Below, piece by piece: positions 22,810 to 51,500 of a DNA stretch of 64,000 nt (position 1 is its first letter; every line of letters begins with the position of its first letter). Both the position numbers and the translations under genes were made by a program. Location of the stretch: assembly GCA_020696385.1 (NCBI GenBank), contig JAEHCQ010000002.1, forward strand, positions 64,001 through 128,000. Reading direction: 5' to 3'. This DNA comes from Methanobacteriota archaeon (GTDB lineage: Archaea; Thermoplasmatota; Thermoplasmata; SG8-5; JAGLSY01). The notes beneath the pieces are model-generated. The model was given only the letters and a program-made list of their open reading frames with translations, had not been told where the DNA came from and did no database searches.

Positions 22810-22822
22810 TCTTATCTGAATG

Positions 22823-25440: not shown

Positions 25441-25468
25441 TTTATCCCCCAGTACTTAATATCTTATA

Positions 25469-26188: not shown

Positions 26189-26194
26189 AAGGAT

Positions 26195-27283: not shown

Positions 27284-27351
27284 GAATATCATGAGTAGAA
27301 ATCTTTGTGCATATAAAATGTTTACCCAAGCATTGTTCTCTGAAGATGGTA

Positions 27352-29001
27352 TCAGGGTCTATATGTATATGCCTCAAATGCACCATTATCATAAAATTTA
27401 TTGGTTGTTACATTATCTTGAAATTGATCATAAAGGAAATTGATTCTTTTACCAACAATATTTGAAGCCAGAGCATAGTCATCAAATACTAATATTGAAT
27501 TGTTGATAAAATCTCCTCTCGCAGATAGAGCACGTATATTCCTATCTGATGCAAAACCTGTCATGACCGTAGCTCCCTGCTCAGCATATATGGTCTCATT
27601 AGTTGTTCTATTGACTAAAAAAATTGAAGCCCCCAAATTACTATCAGATATTATTGCCTCGTTCTCTACATTGAATATTGAAGACATGTTGATAATCGAT
27701 AGAAATAATAGTATAGCTACCAGAATTGGTATGAATTTCATGTTCTTCTTTAATTTTATTTTGGATGATAAAATGAACATGAACGCTAGAGGGACCAGTA
27801 TCATGAAATAGAAAAACAGACCGCGATTATGTAAATGTGAGCCAGAGTAAGCTATGGCCGCGATAAATGCTAGTGATATGCCAACTATCCAGCCAATATA
27901 AATGCCCTTCAAGTCTTTATCTCTTCTATGAACAAATAAGTACATAATCGAAAACAGACCAAATAATAAAAATAATATCAGACGGAGAGTGGATATTGGA
28001 TTCCCCAACCATCCACTAATCAAGGTGCCGAGCGTTGTCGGAAGGGTCACAATGCTATCGATAATGTAAGAAAAATCCCCAGTAAATGAATTAATACTTA
28101 TCAATGATAATGTTATAACAATGAAAATAGCCAGCATAATGAATGTCATGATGTTTGATTTGGGTGTAGAGCCCTCGACCCTCTGGATATAATGCTCTTT
28201 ATAGTAGTTCCATAGAACCATTGAGAATATAATTCCACCAAGATAAATACAAGTCGTCGGATGAGATATTATAAGGCTTAGAATAAGCAAAAGTCCTGTT
28301 ATTTGCCAGATGCGTGAAGATTTAAAATAAAGAGCGATTATGATAAGGGGAAATATGATCAGACCAATAGATTGGGGTGAGAAATGAAATTGCAACCACG
28401 CATTCATTAATATGTGGGTCAATAATGCAAGCTTTCTGACCATATCATTCTTGGAAATATGCTGAATTAATACATAGTATCCGAGTAAGAATATAATAGA
28501 TGAGAAAATTGGATAATATTTTAGAAAGTCATAAGAGTGTATGCCAGACATTTCAAGGCCTATAGCACTGTATAAGAAGGTTCCTGGCCAGCTCATATAG
28601 AGCGTTATATCTGATGAAGGTATGTGCCCATAGCTCAAGATCAATGAGACATTCTCGAAATGATTCCAAGGATCGGTAACCCTTGCATTTGGCTCTATGA
28701 GCACTGGAGTCACCCATACCATGATATTCAGTATGATTATCTGGAACATGAAAAAATATTTTGGAACACAATCGATCATTATTATGATCCCACTGATCAA
28801 ACTGAAAATTCCAAGCCAAAACCATATAGGTATGACTTGATAGAGACCAAATATATTATCTGGATGAACCCACCAGACCTGGTAAGTGGCTATCAGATAA
28901 AGCCAGAGAACGACTCCCATAAGGGTAAGGAGGGATCCCATTATCTTTCGTTGTTTAACTGATCCTTCGGTTAAAAATGGGAAAATATCCTGCCAATCCA
29001 T
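27352..29001 (-). CDS. Polytopic membrane protein, GT-C-like (DUF2206/DUF6541-like)
   Basis: About 13 TM segments; external loop R..DPW.H...I...GHI...Y..WPG; F.PQ and I.HP.T motifs; short C-terminal domain. Confidence 0.55.
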   Translation of the reverse strand: MDWQDIFPFLTEGSVKQRKIMGSLLTLMGVVLWLYLIATYQVWWVHPDNIFGLYQVIPIWFWLGIFSLISGIIIMIDCVPKYFFMFQIIILNIMVWVTPVLIEPNARVTDPWNHFENVSLILSYGHIPSSDITLYMSWPGTFLYSAIGLEMSGIHSYDFLKYYPIFSSIIFLLGYYVLIQHISKNDMVRKLALLTHILMNAWLQFHFSPQSIGLIIFPLIIIALYFKSSRIWQITGLLLILSLIISHPTTCIYLGGIIFSMVLWNYYKEHYIQRVEGSTPKSNIMTFIMLAIFIVITLSLISINSFTGDFSYIIDSIVTLPTTLGTLISGWLGNPISTLRLILFLLFGLFSIMYLFVHRRDKDLKGIYIGWIVGISLAFIAAIAYSGSHLHNRGLFFYFMILVPLAFMFILSSKIKLKKNMKFIPILVAILLFLSIINMSSIFNVENEAIISDSNLGASIFLVNRTTNETIYAEQGATVMTGFASDRNIRALSARGDFINNSILVFDDYALASNIVGKRINFLYDQFQDNVTTNKFYDNGAFEAYTYRP

Positions 29002-29013
29002 CAGTTATTCCTC

Positions 29014-29949
29014 CTATGCGACATTTACATCTATCCACAGATGGATCTCTCTATATACAGTTGGGTCATCATCCTTATATAATTCCATGGTGAGTTTATA
29101 TTGGCCTGCATAGTCTATCTGAAATGCAAAGAAGGTCTCATTAATCTGTTCATGCTCTAAGGCTATGTCATAGGAAGATAGTGTAATATTCTGTCTTTGA
29201 CCAGTGGTGTTAAGCAGACTGATAATTATTATATAGTTTGTTGATTCATACTCATGACAAACTGTCCCTATGGTTATTGTTTTAGTCTCATTAGTTGTCA
29301 TATTTAAAGGAAGATCAGTAATTCCCCTATTTTGATCCAATACATAGAACTCTGTAAAATTCTCCCCCTCCAATGGATTGGTCAAAACATATGCCAGTGT
29401 AAACCCACTGATTATCAAAGAGATCACCAGAACAATGGCTATGAACTTGTCTTCTGGTTCTTCAGCATTTTGGAATATATTTATCTTCTCCACAGGCATT
29501 GTGAAACGATCTGCCTCGGGGATCAGAGATCGTCTGTACCAGCCCATACCACATACAAAAACTATAAAAATTATCAAAAAGGCCAGAATGGGCTTAAGGG
29601 ATATCTCAGAAATGAAATTCAAGATTATACCAATAAATGCCAATATAACTATGCTCAATCCGAAACTCAATACGATCCTTTCAATTACCTTTATTCCGCG
29701 GGTGTTGGTCTCATTTCCCTTGCTATTTTCAGCTTCATACACTGTGTGATTTTCAGGCCATAAAAATGAAACAAAGGCATATCCTGGGAAAAAAATAACA
29801 ATTGGCAAAGCAAATATGATACGTATGAGATTACCACCAGGTAATAAAATGATGGAAATAGCAGAAACTAAAGACAATATAATTACTATTATCAAATCCA
29901 GGGGATAAGTGTTCTTTTTGATAATTGCAGGGATGTTAACAGGCTCCAT
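29014..29949 (-). CDS. DUF1616-domain membrane protein
   Basis: F.PGYA....LWP, ERIVLSFGLSI, E.FTEFYVL, YRE.HLWI.V. Confidence 0.85.
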   Translation of the reverse strand: MEPVNIPAIIKKNTYPLDLIIVIILSLVSAISIILLPGGNLIRIIFALPIVIFFPGYAFVSFLWPENHTVYEAENSKGNETNTRGIKVIERIVLSFGLSIVILAFIGIILNFISEISLKPILAFLIIFIVFVCGMGWYRRSLIPEADRFTMPVEKINIFQNAEEPEDKFIAIVLVISLIISGFTLAYVLTNPLEGENFTEFYVLDQNRGITDLPLNMTTNETKTITIGTVCHEYESTNYIIIISLLNTTGQRQNITLSSYDIALEHEQINETFFAFQIDYAGQYKLTMELYKDDDPTVYREIHLWIDVNVA

Positions 29950-30620
29950 TATTCTTCCTCCTCTCCTAAAACACCTCTTTTGAGGTAAAACTTCTTATTA
30001 ATATAACTCTCCACCACTGAATCATGCGAAGCAATAATAACCGTCGCACCAAATTCCTTATTGGCCTTTTTAAATGCTTCCATCACGATATCACAATTTT
30101 CCATGTCAAGAGATGCAGTGGGCTCATCCGCAAGTAGGACCGTTGGGCTATTAGCCAGTGCCCTGGCAACAGCCACTCTTTGTCTTTCACCGCCACTTAG
30201 TTCATTTGGATATTTACTTGAATATTCATATAGTTCGAATGTCTTCAGAAGCTCCCTAACCTTCCAATCACCATCATGCCACTTTGCGATTTTCATTGGC
30301 AGAAGGACATTCTCGAAAACTGTGAGATCATTTATAAGATTATGAGCCTGGAAAACAATACCTATCCTGTGAAGTCTGATGCTGGCCAATTCCTTATCTG
30401 ACAATTCCCCAGTATTGTATCCATTAAGGAATATCTCGCCTTTGGAAGGGGTGTCGATGCATCCTATGAGATTGAGCAATGTTGTCTTTCCACTTCCAGA
30501 TCTACCTTTGATCAATACCATATCATTGGATTTGATGGTCATGCTTATGCCCTTTAGGATCTCCTTCCTATTGTCATAGGATTTCCATACATCCTTCAGT
30601 ACTATGTCCATTTGCTTCAT
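29949..30620 (-). CDS. ABC transporter ATP-binding protein (LolD/MacB-like)
   Basis: GRSGSGKTT, VFQ, LSGGERQR, LADEPT, SHD. Confidence 0.92.
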   Translation of the reverse strand: MKQMDIVLKDVWKSYDNRKEILKGISMTIKSNDMVLIKGRSGSGKTTLLNLIGCIDTPSKGEIFLNGYNTGELSDKELASIRLHRIGIVFQAHNLINDLTVFENVLLPMKIAKWHDGDWKVRELLKTFELYEYSSKYPNELSGGERQRVAVARALANSPTVLLADEPTASLDMENCDIVMEAFKKANKEFGATVIIASHDSVVESYINKKFYLKRGVLGEEEE

Positions 30621-30785: not shown

Positions 30786-31490
30786 TCACTCAGATATCAC
30801 TGGAGTGGTGACAAAAGCATTCTTTCTTCTTATCAGCCTTAGCCATCCATGCTCGTGTTTCGTACGCCTCATCTTGACACAACGTATTCGAAGCTGTACA
30901 TCTGTTTCGCCAACATCATGCAATCGCAGGTAAATGATGCCATCTGCCAGGAAATCCTCATTATTGGCCACCATTAGTTCACTACCTTGTGTGATCTCGG
31001 ATATCAAAAATACTGTTGAATCCATCTCCTTCAGGAATCTTATAAAGTGAAAGAGATCGACCCTTGGCGAATTGAGCTCTGCCAAAGAATAAAGAGCAGC
31101 CAGGGAATCAACCACGATGAAATCAAAATCCTCCATCTCCGCTCTCTTTTGAATATATTTACTCAATATGCCAAGCCAATTACGACCATGTTCTTCTTCC
31201 TGATGACCCATCCTTATCTTTCCCACATCGACCATGTACAATTCCAAGTCGTCCAGGCCAGTCATACCAAGATCCTGCATGGCTCCCTTCAGGCCTTCAT
31301 ACCCTTCTTCAAGTGACAGGTATAGCCCACGCTTATGCTCTCTCTTCGCATTCTCGTACATTATACTGAAAGTAAGGGATGTCTTCATGGTTCCAGGAGT
31401 TCCACATATCAATACGACATGCCCCTTGGGTATTCCTCCACCCAGATTATCATCGAAGCCCTCAATGTAAGTTTTGATCTTTTCCACCAT
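30786..31490 (-). CDS. Single-domain KaiC-like (RAD55-family) ATPase
   Basis: GFD..LGGGIP, Walker A GTPGTMKT, SLEE, VVDS, ISE, LADGII, VKMR. Confidence 0.9.
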   Translation of the reverse strand: MVEKIKTYIEGFDDNLGGGIPKGHVVLICGTPGTMKTSLTFSIMYENAKREHKRGLYLSLEEGYEGLKGAMQDLGMTGLDDLELYMVDVGKIRMGHQEEEHGRNWLGILSKYIQKRAEMEDFDFIVVDSLAALYSLAELNSPRVDLFHFIRFLKEMDSTVFLISEITQGSELMVANNEDFLADGIIYLRLHDVGETDVQLRIRCVKMRRTKHEHGWLRLIRRKNAFVTTPVISE

Positions 31491-32496: not shown

Positions 32497-33867
32497 TCAA
32501 CTTCTCAAAGTTCGAGTTATAGCGAATTCTTTGTTCCTCAAGGCTACAGGATGATATGGATTGATCTTCAATACCTCTTCATAACACTGTATGGCCTCGT
32601 CGAACTTTCCTTCAGATTGTAAAAGAGCGGCTTTATTGAGCCAGACCCCGATATCCATCTTATCGAGTTGCAGGGCTTTGTCATAGCACTCCAGAGCATC
32701 CTTATTATTACCAAGCACCCTGTAAGTGACGCCGAGATTTGACCAAATTCCGGGATCCTTCGGGCTTATATCCAGGGCCTTACGATACCATGTTATTGCT
32801 TCATCGGTCTTGCCCAGAGTTCTGAGTAAAATACCTTTATTGGACATCAGATCAGCATCATTTGGGTTCAATTCGAGTGATTTGTCATAGCACAATAAAG
32901 CCTCTCCCAATAGTCCCAGACGATGCAGAGATACGCCTTTGTTGAACCAGGCCCAGGAATCATTCGGGTTCTCTTCCAAAGCCATATCAAAGCATTCAAC
33001 AGCCTGTTCACTCTTGCCCATTTTTTCCAATGCCACCCCTCTATTGAACCAGGAATCATCCTCTGGTCTTGTATTGAAATCATATGCTGATATTTCATCT
33101 TTTGTTAGATCAGACATAGGCTTCCTGGTCTCAGATAATCTCTTCACAGGCGGTTCCTCGGCCTTTGGTGGCTCTTCCGGCTCTTCCGGTTCTTCTGGAT
33201 CAGCCTCATCATGAGTTGGCTCTTCTGTTTTCTTCGTCTTGAGCTTTCCAGATATCTTTGCTTCATGCCTTGAAGGAATTACCTTTTCATCGGATTCCAA
33301 TGATGGTTTTACATGATCTGCTTTGAACTCATATCCGCAGATATCACATGTATCTACATCTGTGTGCCACATGGCACCGCATTCAGGACATTCTAGCTTA
33401 TTTCCAGTCAACATTATATTTCGCACATCCTTTATCTGATCGAATTTTCTGGCCAATGCATTTGAGATCTCCTCATTTATGGATCCTGGATTCAGAGGTA
33501 CTATGAGACTGGAGCCGTTTTTAGCCGCAAATTTACCTAGATCTGATAGGAACTCTTCCGTAACATCATATCCGTTCTCCAATATTAGATATTCGACCTC
33601 GTCTATCATCACAATGCATTCTTTATGGCTCTTCATGAACTTTTTCAGGGTTTTGAGAACCTCACCAGTGAGGGCTTTGGGATCCGTGGGGTCTGAAAGC
33701 CAAATGAATTTCGCCTTCTTAAGGTTATACTCTTTCTTCAGCTTGCGCGGTAATTTGGTTGTCAGGCATATGCATGGTATTCCATGCTTGTCGAACTCTG
33801 CGAAGAGCTCGAAAGTGAAATTCGTTTGTGTTTCGTATATTAGATGATTTTTCCCTCTCTCTATCAT
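32497..33867 (-). CDS. DUF835 (inactive KaiC-like) domain + double Zn ribbon + TPR repeats
   Basis: LTT..P, IWLS, ID.VEYLILENGY (DUF835); CPEC...CDIC; about 6 W.N.G TPR units. Confidence 0.85.
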   Translation of the reverse strand: MIERGKNHLIYETQTNFTFELFAEFDKHGIPCICLTTKLPRKLKKEYNLKKAKFIWLSDPTDPKALTGEVLKTLKKFMKSHKECIVMIDEVEYLILENGYDVTEEFLSDLGKFAAKNGSSLIVPLNPGSINEEISNALARKFDQIKDVRNIMLTGNKLECPECGAMWHTDVDTCDICGYEFKADHVKPSLESDEKVIPSRHEAKISGKLKTKKTEEPTHDEADPEEPEEPEEPPKAEEPPVKRLSETRKPMSDLTKDEISAYDFNTRPEDDSWFNRGVALEKMGKSEQAVECFDMALEENPNDSWAWFNKGVSLHRLGLLGEALLCYDKSLELNPNDADLMSNKGILLRTLGKTDEAITWYRKALDISPKDPGIWSNLGVTYRVLGNNKDALECYDKALQLDKMDIGVWLNKAALLQSEGKFDEAIQCYEEVLKINPYHPVALRNKEFAITRTLRS

Positions 33868-33889: not shown

Positions 33890-35650
33890 CTACACCAACC
33901 CTCGCCTCTCCAGTTCCTTCAAAGCGATCTCCCTGTTCTTGACTGCGAGTCTTCTACCAGGGTCTATCTGCATCGCTTTGTCATAACATTCTATTGCCTC
34001 CTTCAAGAGGCCCATACTGCCAAGGACAACACCTTTATTGCTCCAAACTCCCGCATCTCTTGGATTGATCTCTATGGCCTTATCATAAGCTTCTATGGCC
34101 TCTTTTATCCTTCCAGCACTTCTCAAAGCAATACCCTTATTGCTCCAAATACTTGAATCACCTGGATTGACCTGAAGACCCATATTGTAAGAATCAATAG
34201 CTTCCTCAACACGACCCAATGTTCTCAGTGCGATCCCCCTGTTACCCCAGACCTCACTATCATTTGGATTGATCTGAGTGACAAGATCATAACATTCAAG
34301 AGCTTGTTCTATCCTTCCCAACATCTGAAGTACAACACCCTTATTGAATAAAGATTCGGCATGAGCTGGGTCTATGGCAAGAGCACTGTCATAATGTTTG
34401 ATAGCGTCCTCGAACTTCCTCTGTCTTCCAGCGGCAATGCCCATATTGAATTTTTCACTGACCTGGGCCTTCTCTGTTGGTGAAAGACGCCTTTTCACAA
34501 GCCTTCCTTTGATATGCTTCTCCATTGCATCGTTTATATCCATGGATAGAGAATCCAGATTCTTACGGGAACCTCGGAGTTTGCTTACATCTCCATCATA
34601 ATCACTGAGCACATTTTTATATTGGTCTTCCACACCGCTGATATTCTTATGCAATGCCTCTTTGATGTCGCCCATTATCTTGTGCAGATATTCCTCGGCC
34701 TTGCCCGAAAATATCAGAGCAACAGATACATATTTCCCATCTGCAATGAGGATGATATATCCTTTCACATCTATTCTGCTAAATTCAGATGATTCTTCAG
34801 ATGCGAAGGAATTGTTTATGAAGTCCAGAATTGCCTGTAACATGCCCCCGATGAGATCTGGATCGATAAGATCCTGGTCTCTCCAGGTTTTCCTCTGGAT
34901 CAGTGTTCCCGTGCTCCTGTGAATGAGATATATATCCTCGATCTCCAGGTCTGGAAGGTCATCATCTTCCATAGGTATCTCCTGGGTGGCTAATGGGTCA
35001 GGTGGGGCATCTATCCTCAGATCCTGCGGTGTGGACATTGCTGGCTGGGATTGCGCAGCAGGAGTGTATGAAGTTGGAGAGGGAGTATATGATGCAGGTG
35101 TAGGGGAAGGCGCAGGAGCCGGCGCGGTTGGCTGAGGTTGTGGAGCTGGCTCTGGCTTGCCCGCGATCTCATTTATTGTTCCAACCTTGTCAAAATCCCT
35201 AGAAAGAGTTGTCACTGTTTCCTTATTGAATGAATTGGGATTAATGGCTATCATGACGGTTCCGCCATTCATGGACGCCAGGTCATTCGTGCGTTTTATG
35301 AACTTCCTTACCTTGTCATATTCATTCTCCAGGGTCAGATAAGCAAAACCATCGAGCAAGAGTACTGATTCTTCATGTGCCTTCAGGAACTTGTTTATCA
35401 CCCTTGTTATTTCGAAATCCAATCTTGTGGGAACAAGAGTATCGGGCTCATTGCTGGAGTCCGATAGCCAGTATATCTTTGCCTCTTCAGATAGACCATA
35501 TATTTTCTTCAATTTCTTTGGATATAGGGTCGTTATACAGAGACCTGGAACCCCCGATTTGACCACTTCGTCAAATAGTCTAAAGGTCTCATCGGTCTTG
35601 TCCTCGTAAATAAGATAGTTCAATCCTGTGTCAATAGCCGTTTGCCTCAC
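33890..35650 (-). CDS. DUF835 domain + Pro-rich linker + longin-like domain + TPR repeats
   Basis: GLCITT.YP, YWLS, PTRLDFE, LLDG..YL..EN; PAP linker; IYLIH..G.LI...D.DLIGGMLQAI.DF..SF; about 5 TPRs. Confidence 0.85.
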   Translation of the reverse strand: MRQTAIDTGLNYLIYEDKTDETFRLFDEVVKSGVPGLCITTLYPKKLKKIYGLSEEAKIYWLSDSSNEPDTLVPTRLDFEITRVINKFLKAHEESVLLLDGFAYLTLENEYDKVRKFIKRTNDLASMNGGTVMIAINPNSFNKETVTTLSRDFDKVGTINEIAGKPEPAPQPQPTAPAPAPSPTPASYTPSPTSYTPAAQSQPAMSTPQDLRIDAPPDPLATQEIPMEDDDLPDLEIEDIYLIHRSTGTLIQRKTWRDQDLIDPDLIGGMLQAILDFINNSFASEESSEFSRIDVKGYIILIADGKYVSVALIFSGKAEEYLHKIMGDIKEALHKNISGVEDQYKNVLSDYDGDVSKLRGSRKNLDSLSMDINDAMEKHIKGRLVKRRLSPTEKAQVSEKFNMGIAAGRQRKFEDAIKHYDSALAIDPAHAESLFNKGVVLQMLGRIEQALECYDLVTQINPNDSEVWGNRGIALRTLGRVEEAIDSYNMGLQVNPGDSSIWSNKGIALRSAGRIKEAIEAYDKAIEINPRDAGVWSNKGVVLGSMGLLKEAIECYDKAMQIDPGRRLAVKNREIALKELERRGLV

Positions 35651-35902
35651 CCCTGAGTCAATTACTTGAATACTATGACGGTGTTATATGGCTTTACCAT
35701 TAATATCTTTTTGGAGAATAAGAGGATCAAAAGCTGAAAATGGGGTCGGTTAGAGCATTATGCAAAATATGACCTCTAAAGATCATCAATATATTGCCGG
35801 ATGTATGCTTAGTATTCTTTGCCATATATACATTATTATAGTTAATTATGGGTAAACAATAAATAATACATTGTGCAATCAGTAGCCAGGTGCTAAAAGT
35901 TT

Positions 35903-37204
35903 ATGAAATTGGATAATCACCCAAAACCCAGAACCATCTACATTGTTGCCATATTCACATTGGTAGCTTCCATAGTTTTAATATCTGGGATATCGGATTC
36001 GGTGGTTTCGGCCGAGCAGACCAGGGCTATAACATCTCAGGAAAGGTATGAGACCTTGCCCTTCAGTCCAGGCAGCCTGATAATTCCGATGGATGAGAAA
36101 CAGAATGAGAAAATGCATGCCTTTGGCATGCTTCATGCTCTTTTAAGAAATGAGACCGTATGCTACAGGCTCATCGGACCTCCAGCTTCTTTCATAAACA
36201 CCATACAATTTCCAAATGGGACCAATTATTCCGGTGGCCCAATGATCCTATTGGAGTACAATATCACATTATTTGATGAAATAAAGGATCAATTTCCCCT
36301 TGTTACCATTCATGAAGTTTCAGAGACCTTTGTTGGCCAGAGGGTGTACAAGATAGAGGAACCTACAAAGGTATTGATAATAGGTAGAGAGGGCACAGAC
36401 TATCAGGAAAGCCTGTCTGCGGAACTATTGAATGATATGAAGATACCTTACAAGGTCAAACAGATATGGCATATCTATCCAGATTCGACTGATTTCCTGG
36501 ATAATGATCTCATAATTATCGAAGACCCAGGTGAGAACGGAGAAATGAGGAGCTGGAAGAGAGACATGATAAGATCCGCTGTGGGTAGTGGTCGGAACTT
36601 CATATTCATTGGTAAGGCCGTCAAGGACCTTCCAAAAATATTTCCCATGAGTGTGAGTCTTTATGCTGTCAATGATAAGATCAACTTCCAGGCCACATTT
36701 GACAATATCGGAGAATCTCCATCCCAATATCATGGATCTGATATCGTCAATGTGACCACCAGTAACTCGATAGCCACAACTCCCATGTTCGAAGATATGA
36801 AACCCATGCTCTATGCAGAGGGGTTTGATGCCCAGATACTATTTGCATCATATTTCAGATATGGAGATGGGACCGTGGAGATATTCTCCTTCGATCCAGA
36901 GGACCAAGTGGGAGAAATGAGAGAGATGGCCTCCATATTCCTGGGTAACAGGTTCGTACAGGCTCCCCCGGCACCATTGAAAGCGCCATTGCCATTGGCT
37001 CCGTCCGCAATGCCAGTTCCGGCTCCAACTTTACCACCACCACCACCACCGCCACCACCGCCGCCTCCAAGCGTGCCGATGGCGACGGCCATACCTGCGC
37101 AGTATCTATTCGCAGGTTTTGCTGGGCTTGCATTGGGTGACAGGATAAAGAGCAAGACCAAGCCTAAAGTCGCCGTAAGGCAGAAGATCAAGATAAGTAC
37201 ATGA
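35903..37204 (+). CDS. Secreted/surface protein with a poly-proline stalk and hydrophobic C-terminal segment
   Basis: N-terminal signal/TM segment; GSLIIPMD domain; 12 consecutive Pro; AIPAQYLFAGFAGLAL followed by a basic tail. Confidence 0.7.
   Translation: MKLDNHPKPRTIYIVAIFTLVASIVLISGISDSVVSAEQTRAITSQERYETLPFSPGSLIIPMDEKQNEKMHAFGMLHALLRNETVCYRLIGPPASFINTIQFPNGTNYSGGPMILLEYNITLFDEIKDQFPLVTIHEVSETFVGQRVYKIEEPTKVLIIGREGTDYQESLSAELLNDMKIPYKVKQIWHIYPDSTDFLDNDLIIIEDPGENGEMRSWKRDMIRSAVGSGRNFIFIGKAVKDLPKIFPMSVSLYAVNDKINFQATFDNIGESPSQYHGSDIVNVTTSNSIATTPMFEDMKPMLYAEGFDAQILFASYFRYGDGTVEIFSFDPEDQVGEMREMASIFLGNRFVQAPPAPLKAPLPLAPSAMPVPAPTLPPPPPPPPPPPPSVPMATAIPAQYLFAGFAGLALGDRIKSKTKPKVAVRQKIKIST
37034..37069 (+). 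repeat. CCN trinucleotide run encoding 12 prolines
   Basis: cca x5, ccg, cca, cca, ccg, ccg, cct, cca. Confidence 0.9.
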
Positions 37205-37207
37205 GGG

Positions 37208-38323
37208 TTGAATATGAAAATAATAAGAATGCTAGGATTTGCGATCGTGATGTCATTCATCTTCAGCATGGCATTTAGTGCCGTATGCTGTCATGATAAT
37301 GATGGAGCCAATATTCATGATGAGGCAATAGCTCAGACAGAAGGAACAAGACAGGGATTTGTAGGATGGCAACATGCTAGCTTTGATGAGAATCTGGAAG
37401 TGGACTATGCGCCCGTCAACCCCAAGCCCACGGACCCGATCAGAATAACTATCAGGTCACTTGAACCGGATGTCACCATACAAATGGCCTATGTAGATAT
37501 CACTGTCACCTATCCGCAGGGTGGAGTAGCCACCGGTGGAAGGACATTCCTCAGAGTTACTGAAACAGAAATGAAATGCCTGATCGGCCCCTATGATGTT
37601 AATGGAACCACGGTGGCCTTCTTCATAAATGCTTATGATTACAACAATGTGCCCATGCAGTCTCCAGTATACACCATCAATGTCATGGGAGAAGAGAGAA
37701 CAGGTGGCTGGAACAGACTGACTTTCGATGATAATATAAAACTCACACAAACACCCGTATCACCAAATGCCAGTGAAGCCGTCAATATAATAATTGAATC
37801 CAGAGATAGTATCCCCATAGAGGGAGCCAATCTATACTTCCTTTACAAACCGATCGGAGGAGCAGTGGAGTCTGGAGGATGGGCCTTTGACAGGGTGAAC
37901 ATGACTACAATGGAGAGGGAAATACCCGCTAATTTCCATCCAGCTGGCGCGAATATATCTTACTGGATAGTGGCGTGGGATGAATACAGTAATCTGACAA
38001 AGTCAGAACCCATGAATTATTCTGTTCCTGGTATAGTTCTATTCAATTATCCCTTCGAGTATACGATAAAAGAACCAAATGGGGATGTGGATAATTCAAA
38101 ATGGTACCCGGACAATATCACACTTTTTTCCCTGGCTGGGATAGGAATAATAATGATCCCCCTCCTTGCCTATCTGAAGTCCGAAGAGAATAAGAAGATG
38201 AAGAAGAAGGATGACCTTATCATAAAGGAAAAGGATAAGGAGATACTGGGTGGAATTAAAGAAGAAGAAATTGAACCCGATAAAGATGATGATCCAGAAA
38301 CAGATGAGGAGGGTTCAATATGA
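37208..38323 (+). CDS. Single-pass membrane protein with two tandem Ig-like extracellular repeats
   Basis: Signal peptide; duplicated unit (FD.N....PV.P.....I.I.S....I..A.....GG..F.RV..T.M...I....G.....I.A.D..N...S..Y); C-terminal TM and charged tail. Confidence 0.75.
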   Translation: MNMKIIRMLGFAIVMSFIFSMAFSAVCCHDNDGANIHDEAIAQTEGTRQGFVGWQHASFDENLEVDYAPVNPKPTDPIRITIRSLEPDVTIQMAYVDITVTYPQGGVATGGRTFLRVTETEMKCLIGPYDVNGTTVAFFINAYDYNNVPMQSPVYTINVMGEERTGGWNRLTFDDNIKLTQTPVSPNASEAVNIIIESRDSIPIEGANLYFLYKPIGGAVESGGWAFDRVNMTTMEREIPANFHPAGANISYWIVAWDEYSNLTKSEPMNYSVPGIVLFNYPFEYTIKEPNGDVDNSKWYPDNITLFSLAGIGIIMIPLLAYLKSEENKKMKKKDDLIIKEKDKEILGGIKEEEIEPDKDDDPETDEEGSI

Positions 38324-40992
38324 ATGCGCAAACTGAAATGGCAAAGCCATCAATGATATTTGGACTTACCAATAATCTGAGAAAGATAGCATCGGAGGAG
38401 TCAAAGCATCCGAGATTCGTCATAGTCCTGATGTTCTTCATCCTGGGATTGTTCGGGGCATCGTGGATACCCTTCCTCCCATGGTGGATGGCGATCATCG
38501 TGGCTTTCATCATTGCCGCGATATCATATGGTTTTCCATTCCTATCAATGGTCGTGCTCAGTATTTTCGTAATAGGAGCTGCTGGATATCAGACCGCGGA
38601 GTTCGGACTGTTCATGATGCTCTTCTCCATGGTGGTATTGATAATATCCATGTTCGATTGGAAACTGGGATTCCTGGTATTCCTTTCGATATTCCTGTCC
38701 AGGTTCGGGCTTTCATTGATGGTGCCAATGGTGGCAGCCACATTGTTCCCTCTATTATTGTCCCTATCCACCATCGTGCTCACAGGGGTGTTCCTCACCT
38801 TCATGACCACATGTGGAAACTTGACAGTCGCGGGTATGCTGGTTGGCCCAGTACATGATACCAGCTTCATAGCCTTTTACAAGCCAGTAGTTACTAACTT
38901 CGTACCTTCTGACCTTGGTTCCGCCCTGGGCTCGATCCAGAACGCGGAGATGGACATGATGGGGCAGGTCATAGGTGATAATCTTGGCCTTTCAATAATG
39001 CCCATAATCCAGGTAATATTATGGGGATTCGTGGCCTTCCTGGTATACTGGTTCTTCAACAGAAAGAGATCACATGGCAAGAAGTTAGATGTCAAGATGA
39101 CACTACTGCCAGCTTCAATAGCCGCAGGGGTCTTCATCGGATCTTTAAGCTTCATGCTCACACCAACCACAAATGGAATACTGGCAGGCATCATAATCAT
39201 TCCAATGGTCATGGCCTCCATCCTTCTTGGGAAGGCAGGACATGAGTATTTCTTCACTTACTTTGTCAATCTGGAGATCGAGACCAATGTCGGAACCAGG
39301 ATATCGGAGATGGATAATCTGGGAGAAAGCAGTTTCCAATTGATCGGGGGTCTGGATGATGTTAAAGAAGATATCAAGGAATCCATCATGATGCCGCTTT
39401 TGATGAGCGATATAACTGCCAAATATGGCGTGGAAGCTCCTCATGGTATCCTTCTCTTTGGTCCACCAGGTTGTGGAAAGACAATGCTGATGAAGGCACT
39501 GGCCAATGAGCTCAAGGTGGAGATGATCACCATAAAATGTTCCGATATCATGTCAAAATGGTATGGGGAGAGTGAGAACAAGCTCGCGGACTTATTTGAA
39601 ACTGCAAGGGAGAGAAGGCCATGTATCATCTTCTTTGATGACATGGAAGCAATGGCCAAGCACAGAGACCTGTACGCTGGAGATGATGTCACACCAAGAC
39701 TTTTGAGTATCATGCTGGCCGAGCTTGACGGTATGGATAATGCCGCAGGCATCATACTTGTCGGAACCACGAACAAGCCAGAGCTTATAGATCCGGCTCT
39801 TCTCAGGCCTGGAAGGTTCGACAAGATCATATACGTACCACCGCCAGATGTCGATGAGAGAATGGAAATCCTCAAGGTCCATCTGCGCAACAGGCCGGTA
39901 GAAGAGAATATCGACATGCGCCTTGCTGCATTGAAATCAGAAAGGTTCTCGGGAGCGGATCTTTCAAACCTTGCCAAAGAGGCCGCGGTCATCGCGATGA
40001 GAAGATCTGTGGAGAGTGGTGAAGATTCAGTGATCACTGGAGAGGATCTTGTAACAGTGGCCACGACAGTCAAACCCAGTATCAATCTGGCCATGCTGAA
40101 AGAATATGAGCTTCTCAAAATGGATTATGAAAGGAAGATGCATCATGGCGAGAGAGATGAGAAATGGCAGAAGATCAAATGGGAAGATGTTGCAGGCGCG
40201 GATAGAACAAAGAAGGATATCCGCGGATATATCGATATCCTGACCAAAGAGCCTAAGATATTGGAAGATTTCCGCCTGAAGACAGGACGTGGGATGTTAT
40301 TGTTCGGACCTCCTGGTTGCGGAAAGAGCCATATTATGAAGGCCGCGGCCAATGAGCTGAAGATACCTTTGCAGGTCATAAGCGCGCCCGAGATGATAGG
40401 AACTGGTTTGGGAACCATGCCAGTTAATCAAATATTCTTCCGGGCGAGGGAGAACACGCCGTCAATTCTGATGATAGAGAACATCGATGCCCTGGGATCA
40501 AGAGAATCATTCGAGAATCCAGAGGCTTTCAATGTGATATCCCAGATACTTGATGAGGTCGACAATGTCGAGGCCAGGGAGCATGTGCTTATAGTGGCAA
40601 CCACCAATGATCCGGACAGCCTTCACCCCAGCTTGATGAGGCCAGGTAGGTTCGATAAGATATTCCTAGTACCACCACCCAGCTCCAAGGCCAGGAAAGA
40701 GACCTTTAAGATCTATCTGAAATACATACCAATAGCATCCGATGTTGATGACGAACTACTGGATATACTGGCGATGAAGACCAGTGGATACAGCAATGCG
40801 GATATAGCCGCCATAGTCGATGAAGCAAAGCTTACAGCGGTCGTCAACAATGATCCAGATGGTGAAGTGTGTGAAAGAACTGTGTGCAAGGACCATCTAT
40901 TGAATGCGCTAAAAATGGTGGAGACATCCATCACGAAGGAATATCTGGAATCGACAAAGAAGTTCATGGAGAGATACAAAGTGAGGAAGTAA
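38320..40992 (+). CDS. Polytopic membrane domain fused to tandem Cdc48/VAT-type AAA+ domains
   Basis: About 310-aa hydrophobic N-terminus. D1: IGGL, GPPGCGKT, SKWYGESE, DPALLRPGRFD, FSGADL. D2: W.DVAG, GPPGCGKS, RPGRFD, YSNADI. Confidence 0.92.
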   Translation: MNAQTEMAKPSMIFGLTNNLRKIASEESKHPRFVIVLMFFILGLFGASWIPFLPWWMAIIVAFIIAAISYGFPFLSMVVLSIFVIGAAGYQTAEFGLFMMLFSMVVLIISMFDWKLGFLVFLSIFLSRFGLSLMVPMVAATLFPLLLSLSTIVLTGVFLTFMTTCGNLTVAGMLVGPVHDTSFIAFYKPVVTNFVPSDLGSALGSIQNAEMDMMGQVIGDNLGLSIMPIIQVILWGFVAFLVYWFFNRKRSHGKKLDVKMTLLPASIAAGVFIGSLSFMLTPTTNGILAGIIIIPMVMASILLGKAGHEYFFTYFVNLEIETNVGTRISEMDNLGESSFQLIGGLDDVKEDIKESIMMPLLMSDITAKYGVEAPHGILLFGPPGCGKTMLMKALANELKVEMITIKCSDIMSKWYGESENKLADLFETARERRPCIIFFDDMEAMAKHRDLYAGDDVTPRLLSIMLAELDGMDNAAGIILVGTTNKPELIDPALLRPGRFDKIIYVPPPDVDERMEILKVHLRNRPVEENIDMRLAALKSERFSGADLSNLAKEAAVIAMRRSVESGEDSVITGEDLVTVATTVKPSINLAMLKEYELLKMDYERKMHHGERDEKWQKIKWEDVAGADRTKKDIRGYIDILTKEPKILEDFRLKTGRGMLLFGPPGCGKSHIMKAAANELKIPLQVISAPEMIGTGLGTMPVNQIFFRARENTPSILMIENIDALGSRESFENPEAFNVISQILDEVDNVEAREHVLIVATTNDPDSLHPSLMRPGRFDKIFLVPPPSSKARKETFKIYLKYIPIASDVDDELLDILAMKTSGYSNADIAAIVDEAKLTAVVNNDPDGEVCERTVCKDHLLNALKMVETSITKEYLESTKKFMERYKVRK

Positions 40993-40993
40993 G

Positions 40994-41335
40994 ATGGAAA
41001 CATTATCCTGGATACTGATCATATCCACAATAATCTTTGCCGCACTTGGGATCTGGGGAATACGATACCCCAGATCGGCCAAAGATTGGAATAAAGATAG
41101 AGCGGAGACCATGTCCTTGTTCTTCAGTATGATGATTTTCCTGGTCTTTTTCCTTTTGATGTGGTACGTGGTCGGGGTGATCGACTGGCCAGATTCCATG
41201 GATCTCATTATCTGGAGCTCGATCATAATATTCCTGTCACTTATCCTGGCAGCCATATTCTTGCCAAAAGGTACGATGATGAACTGGGGCAAGAAGGGTA
41301 AGAAGGTGAAGACCGCGGACGACGATGACGATTGA
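40994..41335 (+). CDS. Small three-TM membrane protein
   Basis: Three hydrophobic segments and a charged tail; starts 1 nt after the AAA stop codon. Confidence 0.75.
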   Translation: METLSWILIISTIIFAALGIWGIRYPRSAKDWNKDRAETMSLFFSMMIFLVFFLLMWYVVGVIDWPDSMDLIIWSSIIIFLSLILAAIFLPKGTMMNWGKKGKKVKTADDDDD

Positions 41336-41363: not shown

Positions 41364-41396
41364 AGATCCAGGGGTGTTTCAAACACCCCTGGATCT
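41364..41396. terminator. Perfect 16-bp inverted repeat between convergent genes; probable bidirectional terminator
   Basis: agatccaggggtgttt-c-aaacacccctggatct. Confidence 0.65.
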
Positions 41397-41437: not shown

Positions 41438-42697
41438 TCATCTGTGGTGAAGTTCCTTCGCCGCGATAACACTCAGACCCTTCTTGGTCAAAGCATCTGC
41501 CGTCTTGTTAACAGCCAAGTGCTTGTCCATGTAATTCTGGGTTAGGTCATCCATCATCCCGTTCTTTATGACATCTTCCTTGGGCAGGAAGTATTCCAGT
41601 ATGTCAGATGGATGGCTTCTTGACTCCTCGATGTCCATATCCCCGCCCTCGTGCTTGGCACTGATGTTCGGAACGGTCTTGGCAATATGCATCAATTCAT
41701 CACGACGGTCGTATGGCTGGCGCACGATGCTCTTGTATGATTCGAATATATGATGTTCGAATCTGACCACATCGTCCAGGTTCATGGCCTTTCTGATCTC
41801 CGCACTTATCTCGATGGTCTCATTATTCACCGAATTGGAGAAGTTGAAACCAATAAGGGAAGTTGTGCCGTCCCCTCTGCTGAATAATTTGGCAGCCATC
41901 AGGGTCCAGAATATGGAGTATGGATTGTCATTACCCATGAATACCGATATTTTAAACTCATTGTTCACACCCAGCTTGTGAAGCATGTAGGCCAGCATCA
42001 CAGTTCCTGGGTTGACATTGAGCACCTGGTTAACACCGTAATTTGTGTAATAATACAGGAACTCGTCGATCCATTTTAGTCCATAATCATTTGGCTGGCC
42101 CACACCACCGAAATAACCGGTGATGGTCTCCGGACCGCCAAGATGGACATTGGATCCGTCCGTTCCTTTGGTGTCCAGTGTCTCACAAACACTGGCGCCA
42201 ATGATCTTCATCGCGGCCTGAACCGCCAAAAGATCATTATCATCTTCTTGCTCCTTCATCATTCGAACACGAATGAAACGACCTGGCATCAATTCCTGAT
42301 TGGCTATTGCCTGTCTGGCTTCCTTCATGAAGAAAGGAAAGTACTGAAGAGCACTGATCTCAAGAGTTACGGCGATGTCATCATCGAACTCCAGCCCAGC
42401 AGCATTATCACCCACTATCTTCTTCTTGTAATCCTGAATACTGATGAAAGCTCCATTGTCCCTCTGTTCTATCAGCCATTTAAGATCCGCAAGGTATGGT
42501 GAGTTCTTGGCTTCCAGCTGGCCAAGGAGATTCTCCAGCTTTCCAGCCTCCTCCGCCTTCCTGTTTATCTCATCCACTCCGCCATACTTGTCAATGATAG
42601 CAAGGAGATCATTGACCAACCTGTTATCTGGATCCATTAGAAAATCATTTATCTCATTCAATCTTTTATCAGATATCTTTAACATTTCTCTGCTCAT
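41438..42697 (-). CDS. Soluble protein of unknown function (enzyme-like)
   Basis: 419 aa from ATG 42697 with GGAGG RBS; Gly/Asp/His-rich motif block ETLDTKGTDGSNVHLGGPETITGYFGGVGQPND. Confidence 0.75.
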   Translation of the reverse strand: MSREMLKISDKRLNEINDFLMDPDNRLVNDLLAIIDKYGGVDEINRKAEEAGKLENLLGQLEAKNSPYLADLKWLIEQRDNGAFISIQDYKKKIVGDNAAGLEFDDDIAVTLEISALQYFPFFMKEARQAIANQELMPGRFIRVRMMKEQEDDNDLLAVQAAMKIIGASVCETLDTKGTDGSNVHLGGPETITGYFGGVGQPNDYGLKWIDEFLYYYTNYGVNQVLNVNPGTVMLAYMLHKLGVNNEFKISVFMGNDNPYSIFWTLMAAKLFSRGDGTTSLIGFNFSNSVNNETIEISAEIRKAMNLDDVVRFEHHIFESYKSIVRQPYDRRDELMHIAKTVPNISAKHEGGDMDIEESRSHPSDILEYFLPKEDVIKNGMMDDLTQNYMDKHLAVNKTADALTKKGLSVIAAKELHHR

Positions 42698-42795
42698 ATT
42701 TTTGCCTCCCGATATATAAAACGGTATTGAAATAGGGTTAATAAAGATTGTGAAATTCAATAAATACTTTAAGCATTGAGACCATATTAGATATT

Positions 42796-43191
42796 GTGGA
42801 CTATGAGAAGACACTGGAGGATATCCAGGAAGCCCTGGAGCTATTAGCCAGTCAGCCCGATATTCCGATAATCGTGGAAGGCCGCAAGGATGTCAGGGCC
42901 TTGCGGGAGCTTGGAATTGAGGGGGTCATAATAATTTTGAATGATGGCAATTCGATAATAGACACCTGCACGAGTTTATCGAAAGAACACTCAAAAGCCA
43001 TAATCCTCACCGATTGGGACAGGAAAGGTGGACAGCTGGCTCGCCTGCTGATGGAAGCACTGGAGGCCAATGACATGAAATATGACACTGATATTAGAGC
43101 GACGATATCCAGGCTGTCGAAAAAAGAAATAAAAGATATTGAGTCATTGCCGAAATACTTAGCCAGGCTGGAAGAGAAGGTGAGAGGATAG
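42796..43191 (+). CDS. Stand-alone TOPRIM-domain protein (small primase-like/UPF0292)
   Basis: IIVEG.KD..AL..LG and IILTDWD..G. Confidence 0.88.
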   Translation: MDYEKTLEDIQEALELLASQPDIPIIVEGRKDVRALRELGIEGVIIILNDGNSIIDTCTSLSKEHSKAIILTDWDRKGGQLARLLMEALEANDMKYDTDIRATISRLSKKEIKDIESLPKYLARLEEKVRG

Positions 43192-48593: not shown

Positions 48594-51500
48594 TTACTGG
48601 GATAGGGATACTTTCCTCTTCCTACGAACAATACTGAATATGACCATTGGCATGAAGATGACAAATGCGAATGTGCTGTATTCGGATATGATTATGACCA
48701 TCGTGCCAGATGCGAACATCACCCATGTTATTCCGGCATTGGTATTACTGCCTGCTGTGTAATGAGGTGCACCGATCAGGACATCGTTCTTGCTATTACC
48801 ATCCAGGTCGCCCACCTTACACACGGACCAACCGAAATGAGAACTGGCATTGTATGAATAGTTGACATAATCCGCATTGGAGGCACTGATGGTACTGGCC
48901 ATGGTGGCAGAGCCATTGAAAATATACACCGCTCCTTTTCCACTACTGTAATACGGTGCTCCGACGATGACGTCGTCATATGTGTCGCCATTGAAGTCAT
49001 CCAGACCATGGACGGAGTAGCCGAATTTGTCGCCTGAGGATTCGCCTGTAATTGTGACATTGGCCGAGGCAGGGCAATAATACTCGATAGAAATACTATG
49101 TAAAACAGGGGTGGCAGAACCATTTCCATTCATCTCCACTTTGTATCTGAGCTGGCTTCCGGCTGGTTCTCCATTGCTAAATGAATATTCGGAGCCAGAA
49201 GTCAAAGACGGGCTGTAGGTGGTACCTCCATCCCTGGAGACTTTGACTGTCATGGTTTGGCTATTAAGAGTCGCACTCCATGTGGGTGTTACCGATCCGA
49301 CATAATCACCTGCTGTATATGTGTCTGATTCCACATATCCATACGTGTCCACGATATATGTGCTAAGTTTAACATTATCAAGATAGGCCACGGTCGCAGC
49401 TGTTCCAGTTTGGAAAGTAATTATTCCAACATCAACATCATTTATCAGTTCAGCACCGGTTGCTCTGGAGACACCATCAATATAAATGTCATATACAGAT
49501 GGCGTTGCCGAGCAATCAACATCAAGCTGGAAATGATACCATTGATTAGCATTATATGTCTGCAATACCTGAATAGCGCCATCGTAGTATATTATTGTGC
49601 CATCAGTGTAAAACAACATTTGTATGCCAGCTGTATAATCAGACTCTGGTCCAAGAATCTGGAACCAGCCAGTTGTTGTGGTGACACGAGCATCAAATTC
49701 TATAGTGAATGTTGTTGAAAGAGGCATGGACGTCTTGGTAATGTTCACCCTATCAGTGGTGTCTGTGAATTTGACACTGTTATATCCGGAAACACTTTGA
49801 TCATCACTTACTTCAATGGAGCCGCCGGTTTCAGTCACTGTCCATCCACCAGGGTCATCTGAGATTGTTTGAGCATCGAAGTTCTGTGGATTGGTCAAAT
49901 TTACATCCCCAGCGGAAACAGCAAATGTACTGTTGAGGTCTCCGGTATTGAAATCTGCCTGAGTGGTGTTTGATATAGTGCTGGAAGTGAGTCCCATAAT
50001 TGGACTTCCGTAATAGATATAGGCATTTCCATTCGCGGTCCCTGGTGAGCCTATGATGACATCGTCATTTCCATTATTATCAACATCTCCAGCATCAGCC
50101 ACGGACCATCCGAAATGTGTTTTGATAGACGCGCCAGAGACTCTGAGGTACATGTGATCAATGTATACTGTGTCGAGATTAGAATCACTAGTGGATGCAT
50201 CAATCACACCGATATAGAGTGTACCTGTAAAGGCATCCAATGTAGCATCTGAGAAAGATTGGTAAGAATCATCATCGCTTGTTTTTGTGACATCTAACAT
50301 TTTTGTCCAGGAGCTGACGAGACCACTTCCTGTTGTGGAATAGTAAAACTCCATATTCTCTGAATCCTGATTGGTTCTATTGGCCTCCAGATAGAATCTA
50401 GTATCAGTTCCAGTAGTAATACCGGCCATGGTCCATTTATGTTCCAATCTAGTTGAAGCGACCGTTAAGGTGGTGTTCACGCACATATAGTCGATTTCCA
50501 GAGTATCTGCCTGGCTGCCATCAGTAGAGACATTGTCAACAACACCCACATAAAATGCCCCTCCAATGAATCCATCCGCGTCAAGGTCGAATGTGTAGGT
50601 TGTCTGTGCCTGGGCATCGACCGAGAACATGTATGTCCATGCGGCAGTTCCGACATCTCCAGAATTTGTTTCAGCATAATAGAACATGAACTCATCATCC
50701 GGTGTGCCTCCAGAATCCCAGCCAGCGCGAAGCTGGAATTCGTACTGTAGCGCAGAAGATGGGATCGTTGTAAATGTCCATTTGTGCTCGAGGCTGTAGT
50801 GAGATGGGATTGTAACAGACATCGTTACATTTACATCATCCAACCAAACAGCTTCCCCATTTGAACCATGTGCACGCCACTGGATCTGGAAAGCACTATG
50901 CAGATATTGTGAATCGGTTATCGTCTCTTGATAGTTATACCAAGTATCCTCAGTAGATTGCAGGGTTGCCAAATCCTCTATGAGATCCCAAGTTCCAGTG
51001 TTATCATAGTAATAGAGTCCATATTCAGTTGCATCTGCATCATCTTCGCGCCACCAGAAGTCAACAGTGATACTGGTTGCAGATGCTGTATCCATTGATG
51101 GTGATTGAAGGGTACCAGATACACCTGCACCAGTGGAGCCATCAAAATCCGCAGAGTACGTACCGGTATTTGCATAATCGGTTTCCGGGTTCCAAGCCGT
51201 TCCTGCGGCTTCGGTCCAATCGGCGGGCCAAGAGGTACTCTCAAAGCTCTCTGTGGGGATCAAAGTAATAGTACTGATCCCGCCAGTCACCAGTGCCTCT
51301 ACAATGTCCTGTGTTGTACCATCCAGATTCGCCGTTTCTGTATAATCATTCACATTGGATCCAGTATTTGATTGGTTGTAGGTTTCAGATGTGGCAAAAT
51401 CCTCATCATAGGTCGCAGCTGCGCTGACCTCGGTTATGCTCTCATAGCCATCATTCTGGGTCTGGGTACTAGTATGTGTGTTCGTCACTGTTCCAGTATC

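Follow-up and report, generated by a model that had tools for sequence, protein, structure and literature searches.

A four-gene cassette in Thermoplasmatota proposed to encode an integral-membrane AAA+ machine with dedicated surface-protein partners

The 64,000-nucleotide stretch analysed here (hereafter the window; positions 64,001 to 128,000 of contig JAEHCQ010000002.1, assembly GCA_020696385.1, from a Thermoplasmatota archaeon) contains four co-oriented open reading frames (ORFs) on the forward strand at 35903-41335, designated G1 to G4 (Table 1). G1 and G2 encode surface proteins, G3 an ATPase in which a polytopic membrane domain is fused to two AAA modules, D1 and D2, and G4 a small membrane protein. 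It is proposed that this locus encodes a multi-subunit integral-membrane AAA+ machine that is restricted to some Thermoplasmatota. As a tentative reading, to which somewhat less than even confidence is given, the cassette would act as a dedicated membrane AAA dislocase, or "winch", in which the D1 ring pulls on the tails of the co-encoded surface proteins.

The motor is most clearly recognizable in G3. In Pfam searches, PF00004 matched two stretches of the protein (E 2.5e-72), AAA_lid_3 likewise matched two, and nothing was matched in the N-terminal part. Among the NCBIfam models, CDC48 (TIGR01243) ranked first, followed by PAN and FtsH, and all scored under their curated cut-offs (443.3 bits against 802.65 for CDC48; 389.7 bits against 600 for FtsH, TIGR01241). 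By searching PDB sequences, Thermoplasma VAT and p97 were found to be the best solved relatives of both D1 (residues 338-605, E 1e-118) and D2 (residues 606-890, E 2e-82), and for both modules the best-matching stretch of VAT and p97 was their D2. In pairwise BLAST against paralogues from the same genome, D1 shared 37% identity with Cdc48-D2, 36% with Cdc48-D1 and 42% with PAN, and D2 shared 30-32% with the Cdc48 modules and PAN. Based on these family scores, PDB matches and paralogue identities, the G3 motor is placed in the classical AAA clade, nearest to Cdc48 and yet not as a Cdc48 orthologue. A first-pass annotation, made from the letters of this DNA, had described a Cdc48/p97-like double ATPase fused to a membrane domain of about 9-10 helices. 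The fusion and the tandem classical AAA modules with their lids are borne out, but most features that define membership of Cdc48 fail: G3 lacks the double-psi-barrel N-domain of Cdc48/VAT and has a membrane domain of about ten transmembrane (TM) helices instead, it stays below the CDC48 cut-off, and its C-terminus (YKVRK) has no HbYX motif, the rule given for archaeal proteasome-docking members in the available text of Forouzan et al. (2012; PMC3493965). YYA and MFA are the C-termini of the Cdc48 and the PAN encoded in the same genome.

Furthermore, the two AAA modules differ in their motifs, as seen in a survey of 22 proteins of the G3 family. D1, whose Walker A, sensor and Arg-finger region are intact and whose KWYG pore loop is invariant, carries GPPGCGKT and WYGESE in 22/22; its Walker B is the canonical DE(I/V)D in 16 proteins and DD(L/M/I)E in six (the window's own, P0005, P0010, P0013, P0020 and P0033; unfused, closest to the window). 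A Walker A could be located in D2 in 9 of the 22 proteins; among these nine, an aromatic-x-Gly pore loop was found in none, and the Walker B was intact in three and degenerate in six. Conservation within G3 is likewise highest in D1, at a mean pairwise identity of 0.79 (D2, 0.63; membrane domain, 0.55). Since D2 lacks an aromatic pore loop and its Walker B is degenerate, it is not counted as a second motor ring, which corrects the first-pass annotation of a double AAA+ ATPase on this point. D2 is a degenerate ring, probably with a structural or regulatory role, and for the same reasons the active ring of G3 is assigned to D1, rather than to D2 as in Cdc48/VAT.

No protease or peptidase family was present among the 25 best of 39 Pfam families for G3, the C-terminal part of which is wholly D2; here the first-pass annotation is confirmed. 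This finding bears on one alternative, namely general membrane-protein quality control, in which G3 would serve as an FtsH/Msp1-like extractase, removing damaged or orphan membrane proteins from the bilayer so that soluble proteases degrade them, with G1, G2 and G4 as adaptors or regulators, as HflK/C are regulatory partners of FtsH. The classical AAA clade includes FtsH, the score of G3 against that model being below its cut-off, and FtsH offers a works-like analogy, with an AAA ring that is joined directly to membrane helices and placed to pull membrane proteins cytoplasm-ward; unlike FtsH, G3 carries two AAA modules rather than one, and about ten TM helices rather than two around a periplasmic domain. 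D1, with its complete pore loop, likewise lies directly beneath the membrane, and no FtsH M41 peptidase (PF01434) was found in the window's own genome, which is 94% complete. However, a Lon protease gene, a canonical Cdc48 and a PAN with HbYX-type ends are already present in that genome, whereas G3 has neither protease domain nor HbYX. In addition, the spread of the family across the phylum is patchy, unlike that of a housekeeping function, its partners co-vary tightly with the motor, and the tail module of the G1-type partner is specifically conserved (see below). Taken together, general quality control is considered unlikely.

The N-terminal 310 residues of G3 are hydrophobic and display about ten hydropathy peaks, with a Lys/Arg-rich loop at residues 247-259 and an acidic loop of 45 residues. 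As the AAA part has to face the cytoplasm, both ends of the domain are predicted to lie inside (N-in/C-in) and the acidic loop outside, and an N-in start is also required by fused forms from other lineages, which run from ectodomain and TM helix through a Lys-rich linker into the membrane domain. This domain has no evident relatives among known families: no meaningful Pfam or NCBIfam match was obtained for 15 family members (residues 20-335 for Pfam, E<=10), a profile search of PDB sequences gave a single chance match (E 1.7), and an Atlas feature search with a G3 homologue returned no usable match. A match to a characterised transporter or enzyme family, which would have spoken against the first-pass reading, was thus looked for in Pfam, NCBIfam and PDB, and none was found. 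An internal repeat (5+5 helices) was also looked for, and none was found. By profile search, the membrane domain was recovered in 35 clusters among 1.84 billion representative proteins, 25 of them at E<=1e-30. Over 23 near-full-length representatives, the positions conserved at 85% or above comprise only Pro, Gly, Trp, Leu and Phe and one Gln (Q91), which argues that the domain is a scaffold or conduit and not an enzyme. Exosortases and archaeosortases are polytopic enzymes with conserved catalytic Cys, Arg and His, and their targets bear a tripartite signal at the C-terminus. A sortase-like membrane enzyme was considered and rejected, given that Cys, His and Arg are conserved within the window's order and none of them reaches 85% over the 23 representatives; no exosortase match in Pfam or NCBIfam was found for the membrane domain, although the C-terminus of G1 looks tripartite. 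In the most distant members the cytoplasmic modules are different ones: P0060 has a KaiC-like ATPase (PF06745, E 6e-35), P0035 one AAA module and a Vps4_C helix, and P0063 both a zinc ribbon and a coiled coil. With its cytoplasmic modules swapped in this way, the membrane domain looks like a platform for cytoplasmic ATPases. The C-terminal domain of the protein P0064 was compared with DUF835, a domain encoded next to the cassette in the window, and the link was dropped (BLASTP not significant; hhalign 1.5%).

The evidence for partners of this motor begins with the arrangement of the genes. G1 and G2 are separated by 3 nucleotides (nt), G2 and G3 overlap by 4 nt (ATGA), and G3 and G4 are 1 nt apart; the ORF coordinates agree in this with the first-pass annotation. 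G1 and G3 start with ATG. The start of G2 is a TTG, and an in-frame ATG at 37214, six bases on, would give a G1-G2 gap of 9 nt. Conservation was assessed in a comparison set of 41 related genomes, from which 16 G3 loci were taken for synteny (hereafter near loci). G3 with its membrane domain, uninterrupted by stops, is present in 21 of the 41 genomes, and the possibility that the fusion is an assembly artefact is thereby excluded. Within the families of the window's order it occurs in 4/4, 2/2, 1/2 and 11/13 genomes, and two further families of its class also have it. In 13/16 near loci the four genes lie side by side in one orientation; two of the others are truncated at contig ends, and one (L024) carries a fused form. 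G1 was detected in 20/21 genomes with G3 and in 0/20 without it, the exception being a 74% complete genome in which G3 lies on a 3.5-kb contig. Strong matches to G2 were found in 21/21 genomes with G3 and in 0/20 others, with two weak partial matches. A genome of the same order (G009, 92% complete) lacks G1, G2 and G3 altogether. In view of the kinship of the genomes, these counts are supportive and not a statistic; they do show that, as anticipated by the first-pass annotation, the partners nearly always accompany G3 homologues. All four ORFs are conserved without stops in relatives, and the genes flanking the cassette are shared only within the window's own family. Judged from these comparisons of sequence, the cassette is a real, selected unit.

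On a wider scale, the membrane domain was found in 38 of 401 sampled genomes of the phylum (20/262 high-quality ones) and is concentrated in few families (e.g. 19/24 and 6/9 genomes). The named relatives are all Thermoplasmata or Thermoplasmatota metagenome-assembled genomes. The order of the window (SG8-5, Candidatus Proteinoplasmatales) took up labelled protein in marine sediment incubations, according to the available text of PMC9123169.

G2 is the partner for which association with the motor is best documented. It has an N-terminal signal-like segment, a single TM helix and two repeats of about 110 residues, which align to each other over 107 columns (hhalign 99.9%, E 5e-32). The first-pass description of a single-pass protein with tandem domains is thus correct, and its Ig-like label is weakly supported, with Big_3_5 matched in 4/24 family members at a best E of 0.0034. 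Against PDB sequences, G2 gave nothing by profile, and single-sequence search returned only low-complexity or chance matches. In other lineages, the G2 ectodomain and TM helix are fused ahead of the G3 membrane domain, as in P0031 (1377 residues, genome G023) and P0030 (1285 residues). Nine fused sequences align with 15 separate G2 proteins across both repeats, with 12 invariant columns, and in 15 of the 35 representative clusters the membrane domain starts only at residue 283-462. These fusions argue strongly for a physical association of G2 and G3, and they strengthen the earlier suggestion that the surface proteins are physical partners of the ATPase. G2 can be described from its gene architecture as a stoichiometric subunit, translationally coupled to G3 in the window and part of the same polypeptide elsewhere.

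G4 is the other constant partner. Three hydrophobic segments were identified by hydropathy, as the first-pass annotation had noted, and an alignment of 27 sequences (A3) revealed invariant P26 and P66 together with conserved YP.G..DW and P.G motifs. In 15/16 near loci the gene comes directly after G3, and the remaining locus is truncated at the end of its contig; a homologue of 116-148 residues is found in 11 of 12 more distant loci, the 12th being truncated too. G4 is hence predicted to be a constant small subunit, and G2, G3 and G4 appear as the constant core of the cassette.

G1 is built differently, with a variable extracellular module attached to a conserved C-terminal part. The mean pairwise identity of the ectodomain (0.49-0.53) is below that of the Pro-rich linker (0.69) and the C-terminal module (0.70). 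The first-pass annotation had taken G1 for a secreted poly-Pro protein; the run of 12 Pro is there, but the conserved, marginally hydrophobic segment and the basic tail that follow it indicate that the protein is probably C-terminally anchored rather than secreted. No Pfam (E<=1) or NCBIfam family and no VWA match was found for G1. The ectodomain alignment (A4) contains 31 invariant columns; compared with the PDB, the ectodomain had no profile match, and a single-sequence search of G1 gave only low-complexity or chance matches. Atlas feature leads for a G1 orthologue were DUF4350 (0.85), BPL_N (0.84) and ThuA (0.80), all below 0.9, the score from which a match counts as more than a lead. A DUF4350 or GldG-like identity was not supported by Pfam (E<=1) or by hhalign against DUF4350 (PF14258) profiles, for which the probabilities were 0.2% and 1.0% and not significant.

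The G1 slot of the cassette is occupied by a different kind of protein in distant lineages. In 12/12 distant loci the order is an ORF of 421-482 residues, a fused ATPase of up to 1386 residues and the G4 homologue, which is last in 11/12. The upstream ORF of locus L049 is a signal-bearing VWA protein (PF00092, E 4.6e-16), full-length homologues of it are encoded by 10 of the 11 other upstream ORFs, and a DxSxS motif of the metal ion-dependent adhesion site (MIDAS) type occurs in 8/12. Homology between G1 and these VWA-type partners is confined to the C-terminal module, which consists of a Pro-rich stretch, a hydrophobic segment with an acidic end and a basic tail (hhalign 97%, E 1e-10). The view that the G1 ectodomain is a diverged VWA domain was rejected at the profile level, as only the C-terminal module aligns.

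These features raise the alternative of ATP-driven inside-out control of adhesion, in which force passing through the G1 rod would switch or retract the extracellular binding module without any extraction, in the manner of a motorised integrin-like receptor. A VWA partner with a DxSxS motif in most distant loci would suit such a receptor, as would the conserved Pro-rich rod and tail that link the module to the motor side, the opposite charge of the tails (G1 basic, G2 acidic) and the D1 Walker B variant of the window's order, which could fit a slow, holding motor. Ligand binding is, however, putative, the G1 ectodomain of the window is not of VWA type, and the argument is one of architecture, so that this alternative is regarded as very improbable. 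A related, speculative view is that of a transmembrane force transmitter, of a kind absent from the literature searched: the AAA ring would grip a G1-type protein by its basic tail, with the weakly hydrophobic segment threaded through the centre of the membrane-domain ring, and pull on the rigid polyproline rod, thereby switching or retracting the VWA/MIDAS-type module as an ATP-powered, integrin-like adhesion or capture device. This, too, is judged quite improbable.

In distant lineages the cassette also has large neighbours. A giant co-oriented single-pass ORF adjoins it in 8 of the 12 distant loci; seven of the eight giants have a TM anchor and a long charged cytoplasmic tail, and the eighth is cut by the end of the locus. 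Three giant ORFs were scanned with Pfam and found to be rich in Big_7 and Big_13, one of them also having VWA; that of L048 is Big_7-rich. Upstream of the fused ATPase, the tails of four of the seven (L048, L055, L058 and L059) share a C-terminal motif of the type ..SVMDA(D/E)LPSDK(D/E). By eye, three of these four tails also contain a helix-hairpin-helix-like stretch, and that of L048, which was scanned, matched HHH_5 and RNA_pol_A_CTD. Large surface or adhesion proteins with predicted cytoplasmic tails beside a membrane AAA motor are thus a theme of the distant lineages.

Such neighbours would be expected if the cassette were an export or assembly machine that moves large surface proteins outward, that is, a new secretion or surface-assembly system, for which AAA translocation of the Bcs1 type is a thematic parallel. 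The giants and their charged tails favour this alternative, as does the similarity of the cassette to the arCOG01314-associated complex, a predicted secretion or membrane-remodelling system. In the available text of Makarova et al. (2015; PMC5898192), the parts of that complex are given as a MoxR ATPase, an extracellular VWA protein, Ig-like membrane proteins, proteins with 2-3 TM helices and a C-terminally anchored flavodoxin-like ectodomain protein with a signal peptide. Its ATPase, however, is a soluble one of the MoxR type (COG0714), whereas G3 is a classical AAA protein fused to a membrane domain. More generally, G3 differs from MoxR-VWA systems in being best matched by PF00004 and the CDC48, PAN and FtsH models, with a VWA partner in other lineages only. 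Classical AAA rings with an aromatic pore loop pull substrate into the ring. By analogy with them, the pull here would be cytoplasm-ward, opposite to export. Moreover, G1 and G2 have ordinary N-terminal signal-like segments, so that Sec export would suffice for them, and in the near loci of the window's own order no giant adhesin gene is conserved beside the cassette. An outward-directed machine is therefore rated as distinctly unlikely.

The preferred reading, dislocation by a D1 "winch", can be laid out as a series of steps modelled on classical AAA proteins. Like its relatives, G3 would form a hexamer, placing 60 helices around a central axis. The entry pore of D1, about 35 residues below the last helix, would face the bilayer directly under the ring of membrane domains. 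There, the D1 pore loops would grip the extended cytoplasmic tail of the G1-type partner, and possibly those of neighbouring single-pass or giant surface proteins, and an ATP-dependent pull would retract the marginally hydrophobic anchor or dislocate it from the membrane. The G1-type protein would accordingly be client or effector, presenting a variable extracellular module (orphan here, VWA/MIDAS elsewhere) on a Pro-rich rod with a basic cytoplasmic tail. As G3 carries neither a protease domain nor an HbYX motif, the outcome would be remodelling, release, recycling or hand-on of the surface protein rather than its degradation in place.

Several points weigh against this reading. The hexamer, the orientation of the pore, the engagement of tails, and the direction and purpose of pulling are all carried over from classical AAA proteins. 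The first-pass interpretation is supported in part: complex and partners are borne out, and the channel that it proposed for the membrane domain is putative. One central pore cannot serve six clients at once. The hydrophobic segment of the G1 C-terminal module falls below the TM threshold; G1 may fail to cross the bilayer, in which case its basic tail might be extracellular. The DD(L/M/I)E form of the D1 Walker B may signify slow hydrolysis, pointing to a holder or switch rather than a processive puller. G1-type modules also work outside the cassette: a stand-alone paralogue beyond the window (G000:C46:106836-108209, minus strand) is 58% identical to G1 and has the same C-terminal module, and in genome G023 the ectodomain module occurs inside giant surface proteins whose genes are not near any ATPase gene (L072:1178-6292, plus strand, 1705 residues, E 4e-89; L073:3381-8144, minus strand, 1588 residues, E 1e-74). 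Finally, perfect co-occurrence overstates the support, since related genomes are not independent of each other.

Two side observations concern these G1 relatives. By eye, the G023 giants also show lamin-tail-like repeats, and the paralogue is divergent from a gene for a 1078-residue surface protein that resembles a peptide-binding solute-binding protein.

Compared with other known systems, the cassette combines familiar and unfamiliar elements. Msp1/ATAD1, Pex1-Pex6 and Bcs1 carry out ATP-driven extraction or translocation at membranes without a built-in protease, and Pex1/6 is a double ring with one dominant motor ring. To our knowledge, these proteins are held by single-helix or separate-protein anchors, and none has a polytopic domain or co-encoded extracellular partners; more broadly, in the membrane-attached AAA unfoldases known to us, the motor is attached through one or two helices or through a separate adaptor. 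The likeness of G3 to Msp1/ATAD1, Pex1-Pex6 and Bcs1 is one of general features, and the sequence matches are generic AAA ones. An anti-phage defence system was likewise considered and rejected: in PADLOC, only the generic IetA and TRIP13 models matched the AAA part, and G1, G2 and G4 matched 0 families. Among archaea, the Sulfolobus protein MBA is a membrane-attached AAA protein, and archaeal AAA proteins, including an uncharacterised 'Mm0854' group, are clustered in a Supplemental Fig. S1 that might bear on a prior sighting of the family, as far as the available text goes (Forouzan et al., 2012; PMC3493965). In the literature searched, outside which most subscription journals and supplements lie, neither a Cdc48-like ATPase with a polytopic membrane domain nor the cassette was found described. 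The motor type and membrane-tethered AAA unfoldases are thus known, and the membrane domain, the extracellular-domain fusion and the dedicated partner set are new.

Table 1. Features of the cassette and its boundaries (positions refer to the window; aa, amino acids)
Feature	Position	Strand	Description
Intergenic region	35651..35902	.	252 nt, AT-rich, from divergent DUF835-TPR gene to G1; presumed promoter region
G1	35903..37204	+	433 aa surface protein: N-terminal signal/anchor, orphan ectodomain, Pro-rich rod, conserved C-terminal module
G1 N-terminal hydrophobic segment	35924..36013	+	aa 8-37; signal peptide or anchor; sole G1 segment over the hydropathy threshold
G1 ectodomain module	36035..36976	+	aa 45-358; orphan, possibly flavodoxin-like / GATase1-like fold (lead)
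G1 Pro-rich linker	36968..37078	+	aa 356-392; run of 12 Pro at 37034-37069 (aa 378-389)
G1 C-terminal module	37079..37201	+	aa 393-433; marginally hydrophobic segment ending in Asp, basic tail of ~20 aa
G2	37208..38323	+	371 aa single-pass protein: signal, two tandem ~110-aa beta-rich repeats, TM, acidic cytoplasmic tail
G2 first repeat	37361..37693	+	
G2 second repeat	37694..38038	+	
G2 TM	38117..38173	+	aa 304-322
G3	38320..40992	+	890 aa; membrane domain-D1-D2 AAA ATPase
G3 membrane domain	38410..39249	+	aa 31-310; ~10 TM helices, N-in/C-in (predicted); acidic extracellular loop aa 176-220 (38845-38979)
G3 D1 AAA module	39355..40134	+	Walker A 39460-39483; pore loop KWYG 39556-39567; Walker B variant FFDDME 39631-39648
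G3 D2 AAA module	40135..40989	+	Walker A intact 40306-40329; Walker B degenerate MIENID 40471-40488; no aromatic pore loop; C-terminus YKVRK
G4	40994..41335	+	113 aa, 3 TM, immediately 3' of G3
Inverted repeat	41364..41396	.	Perfect 16-bp, between convergent genes; terminator-like

At its downstream end, the cassette is followed by the perfect 16-bp hairpin that the first-pass annotation had seen closing the operon. The arms, at 41364-41379 and 41381-41396, are 16 nt each, 100% complementary and 1 nt apart. As RNA, the structure has a minimum free energy of -28.7 kcal/mol (z = -5.5), and 0/200 shuffles were equally stable. The G4 stop is 28 nt before it, and 41 nt separate it from the end of the convergent ORF 41438..42814; situated between the two, it could serve either gene or both. 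The core of the hairpin was found again behind G4 in the locus of a genus-mate (L013) and in 0/3 other relatives' loci checked.

On the other side, two paralogous genes of the DUF835 and TPR type (32497-33867 and 33890-35650, both on the minus strand; PF05763, E 4e-19 and 1e-26) are divergent from the cassette; this pair adjoins it only in the window's own family (L013, L014). A KaiC-like ATPase gene is located at 30786-31490. Further away, a giant protein of 2884 residues is encoded at 48594-57248 (minus strand), with N-terminal TPR, helix-hairpin-helix and zinc-ribbon parts, FG-GAP (integrin-alpha-type) repeats, a sialidase-like carbohydrate-binding module and a C-terminal hydrophobic anchor; its gene is not linked to the cassette in other families. 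In addition, the window has a stretch of low GC content at about 20000-30000 (0.34-0.37, compared with about 0.45 elsewhere), which contains a DUF1616 (PF07760) membrane protein, an ABC ATPase and an unannotated 549-residue ORF and may be a surface or glycosylation island.

AAA unfoldases at the membrane, among them FtsH, Msp1 and, through its adaptors, Cdc48, have a central part in the turnover of membrane proteins, and it is in this setting that the cassette would be of interest. In the fusions of sister lineages, one polypeptide would span the distance from the cell surface to the cytoplasmic motor. The cassette also adds two orphan ectodomain modules and a membrane domain family without annotation to the surface repertoire of Thermoplasmatota. 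Furthermore, if the partners are clients, the cassette would provide a compact system with defined genetics that encodes an AAA motor and its substrate side by side, well suited for studying the pulling of polypeptides from or across a membrane and the remodelling of the cell surface in archaea that lack FtsH.

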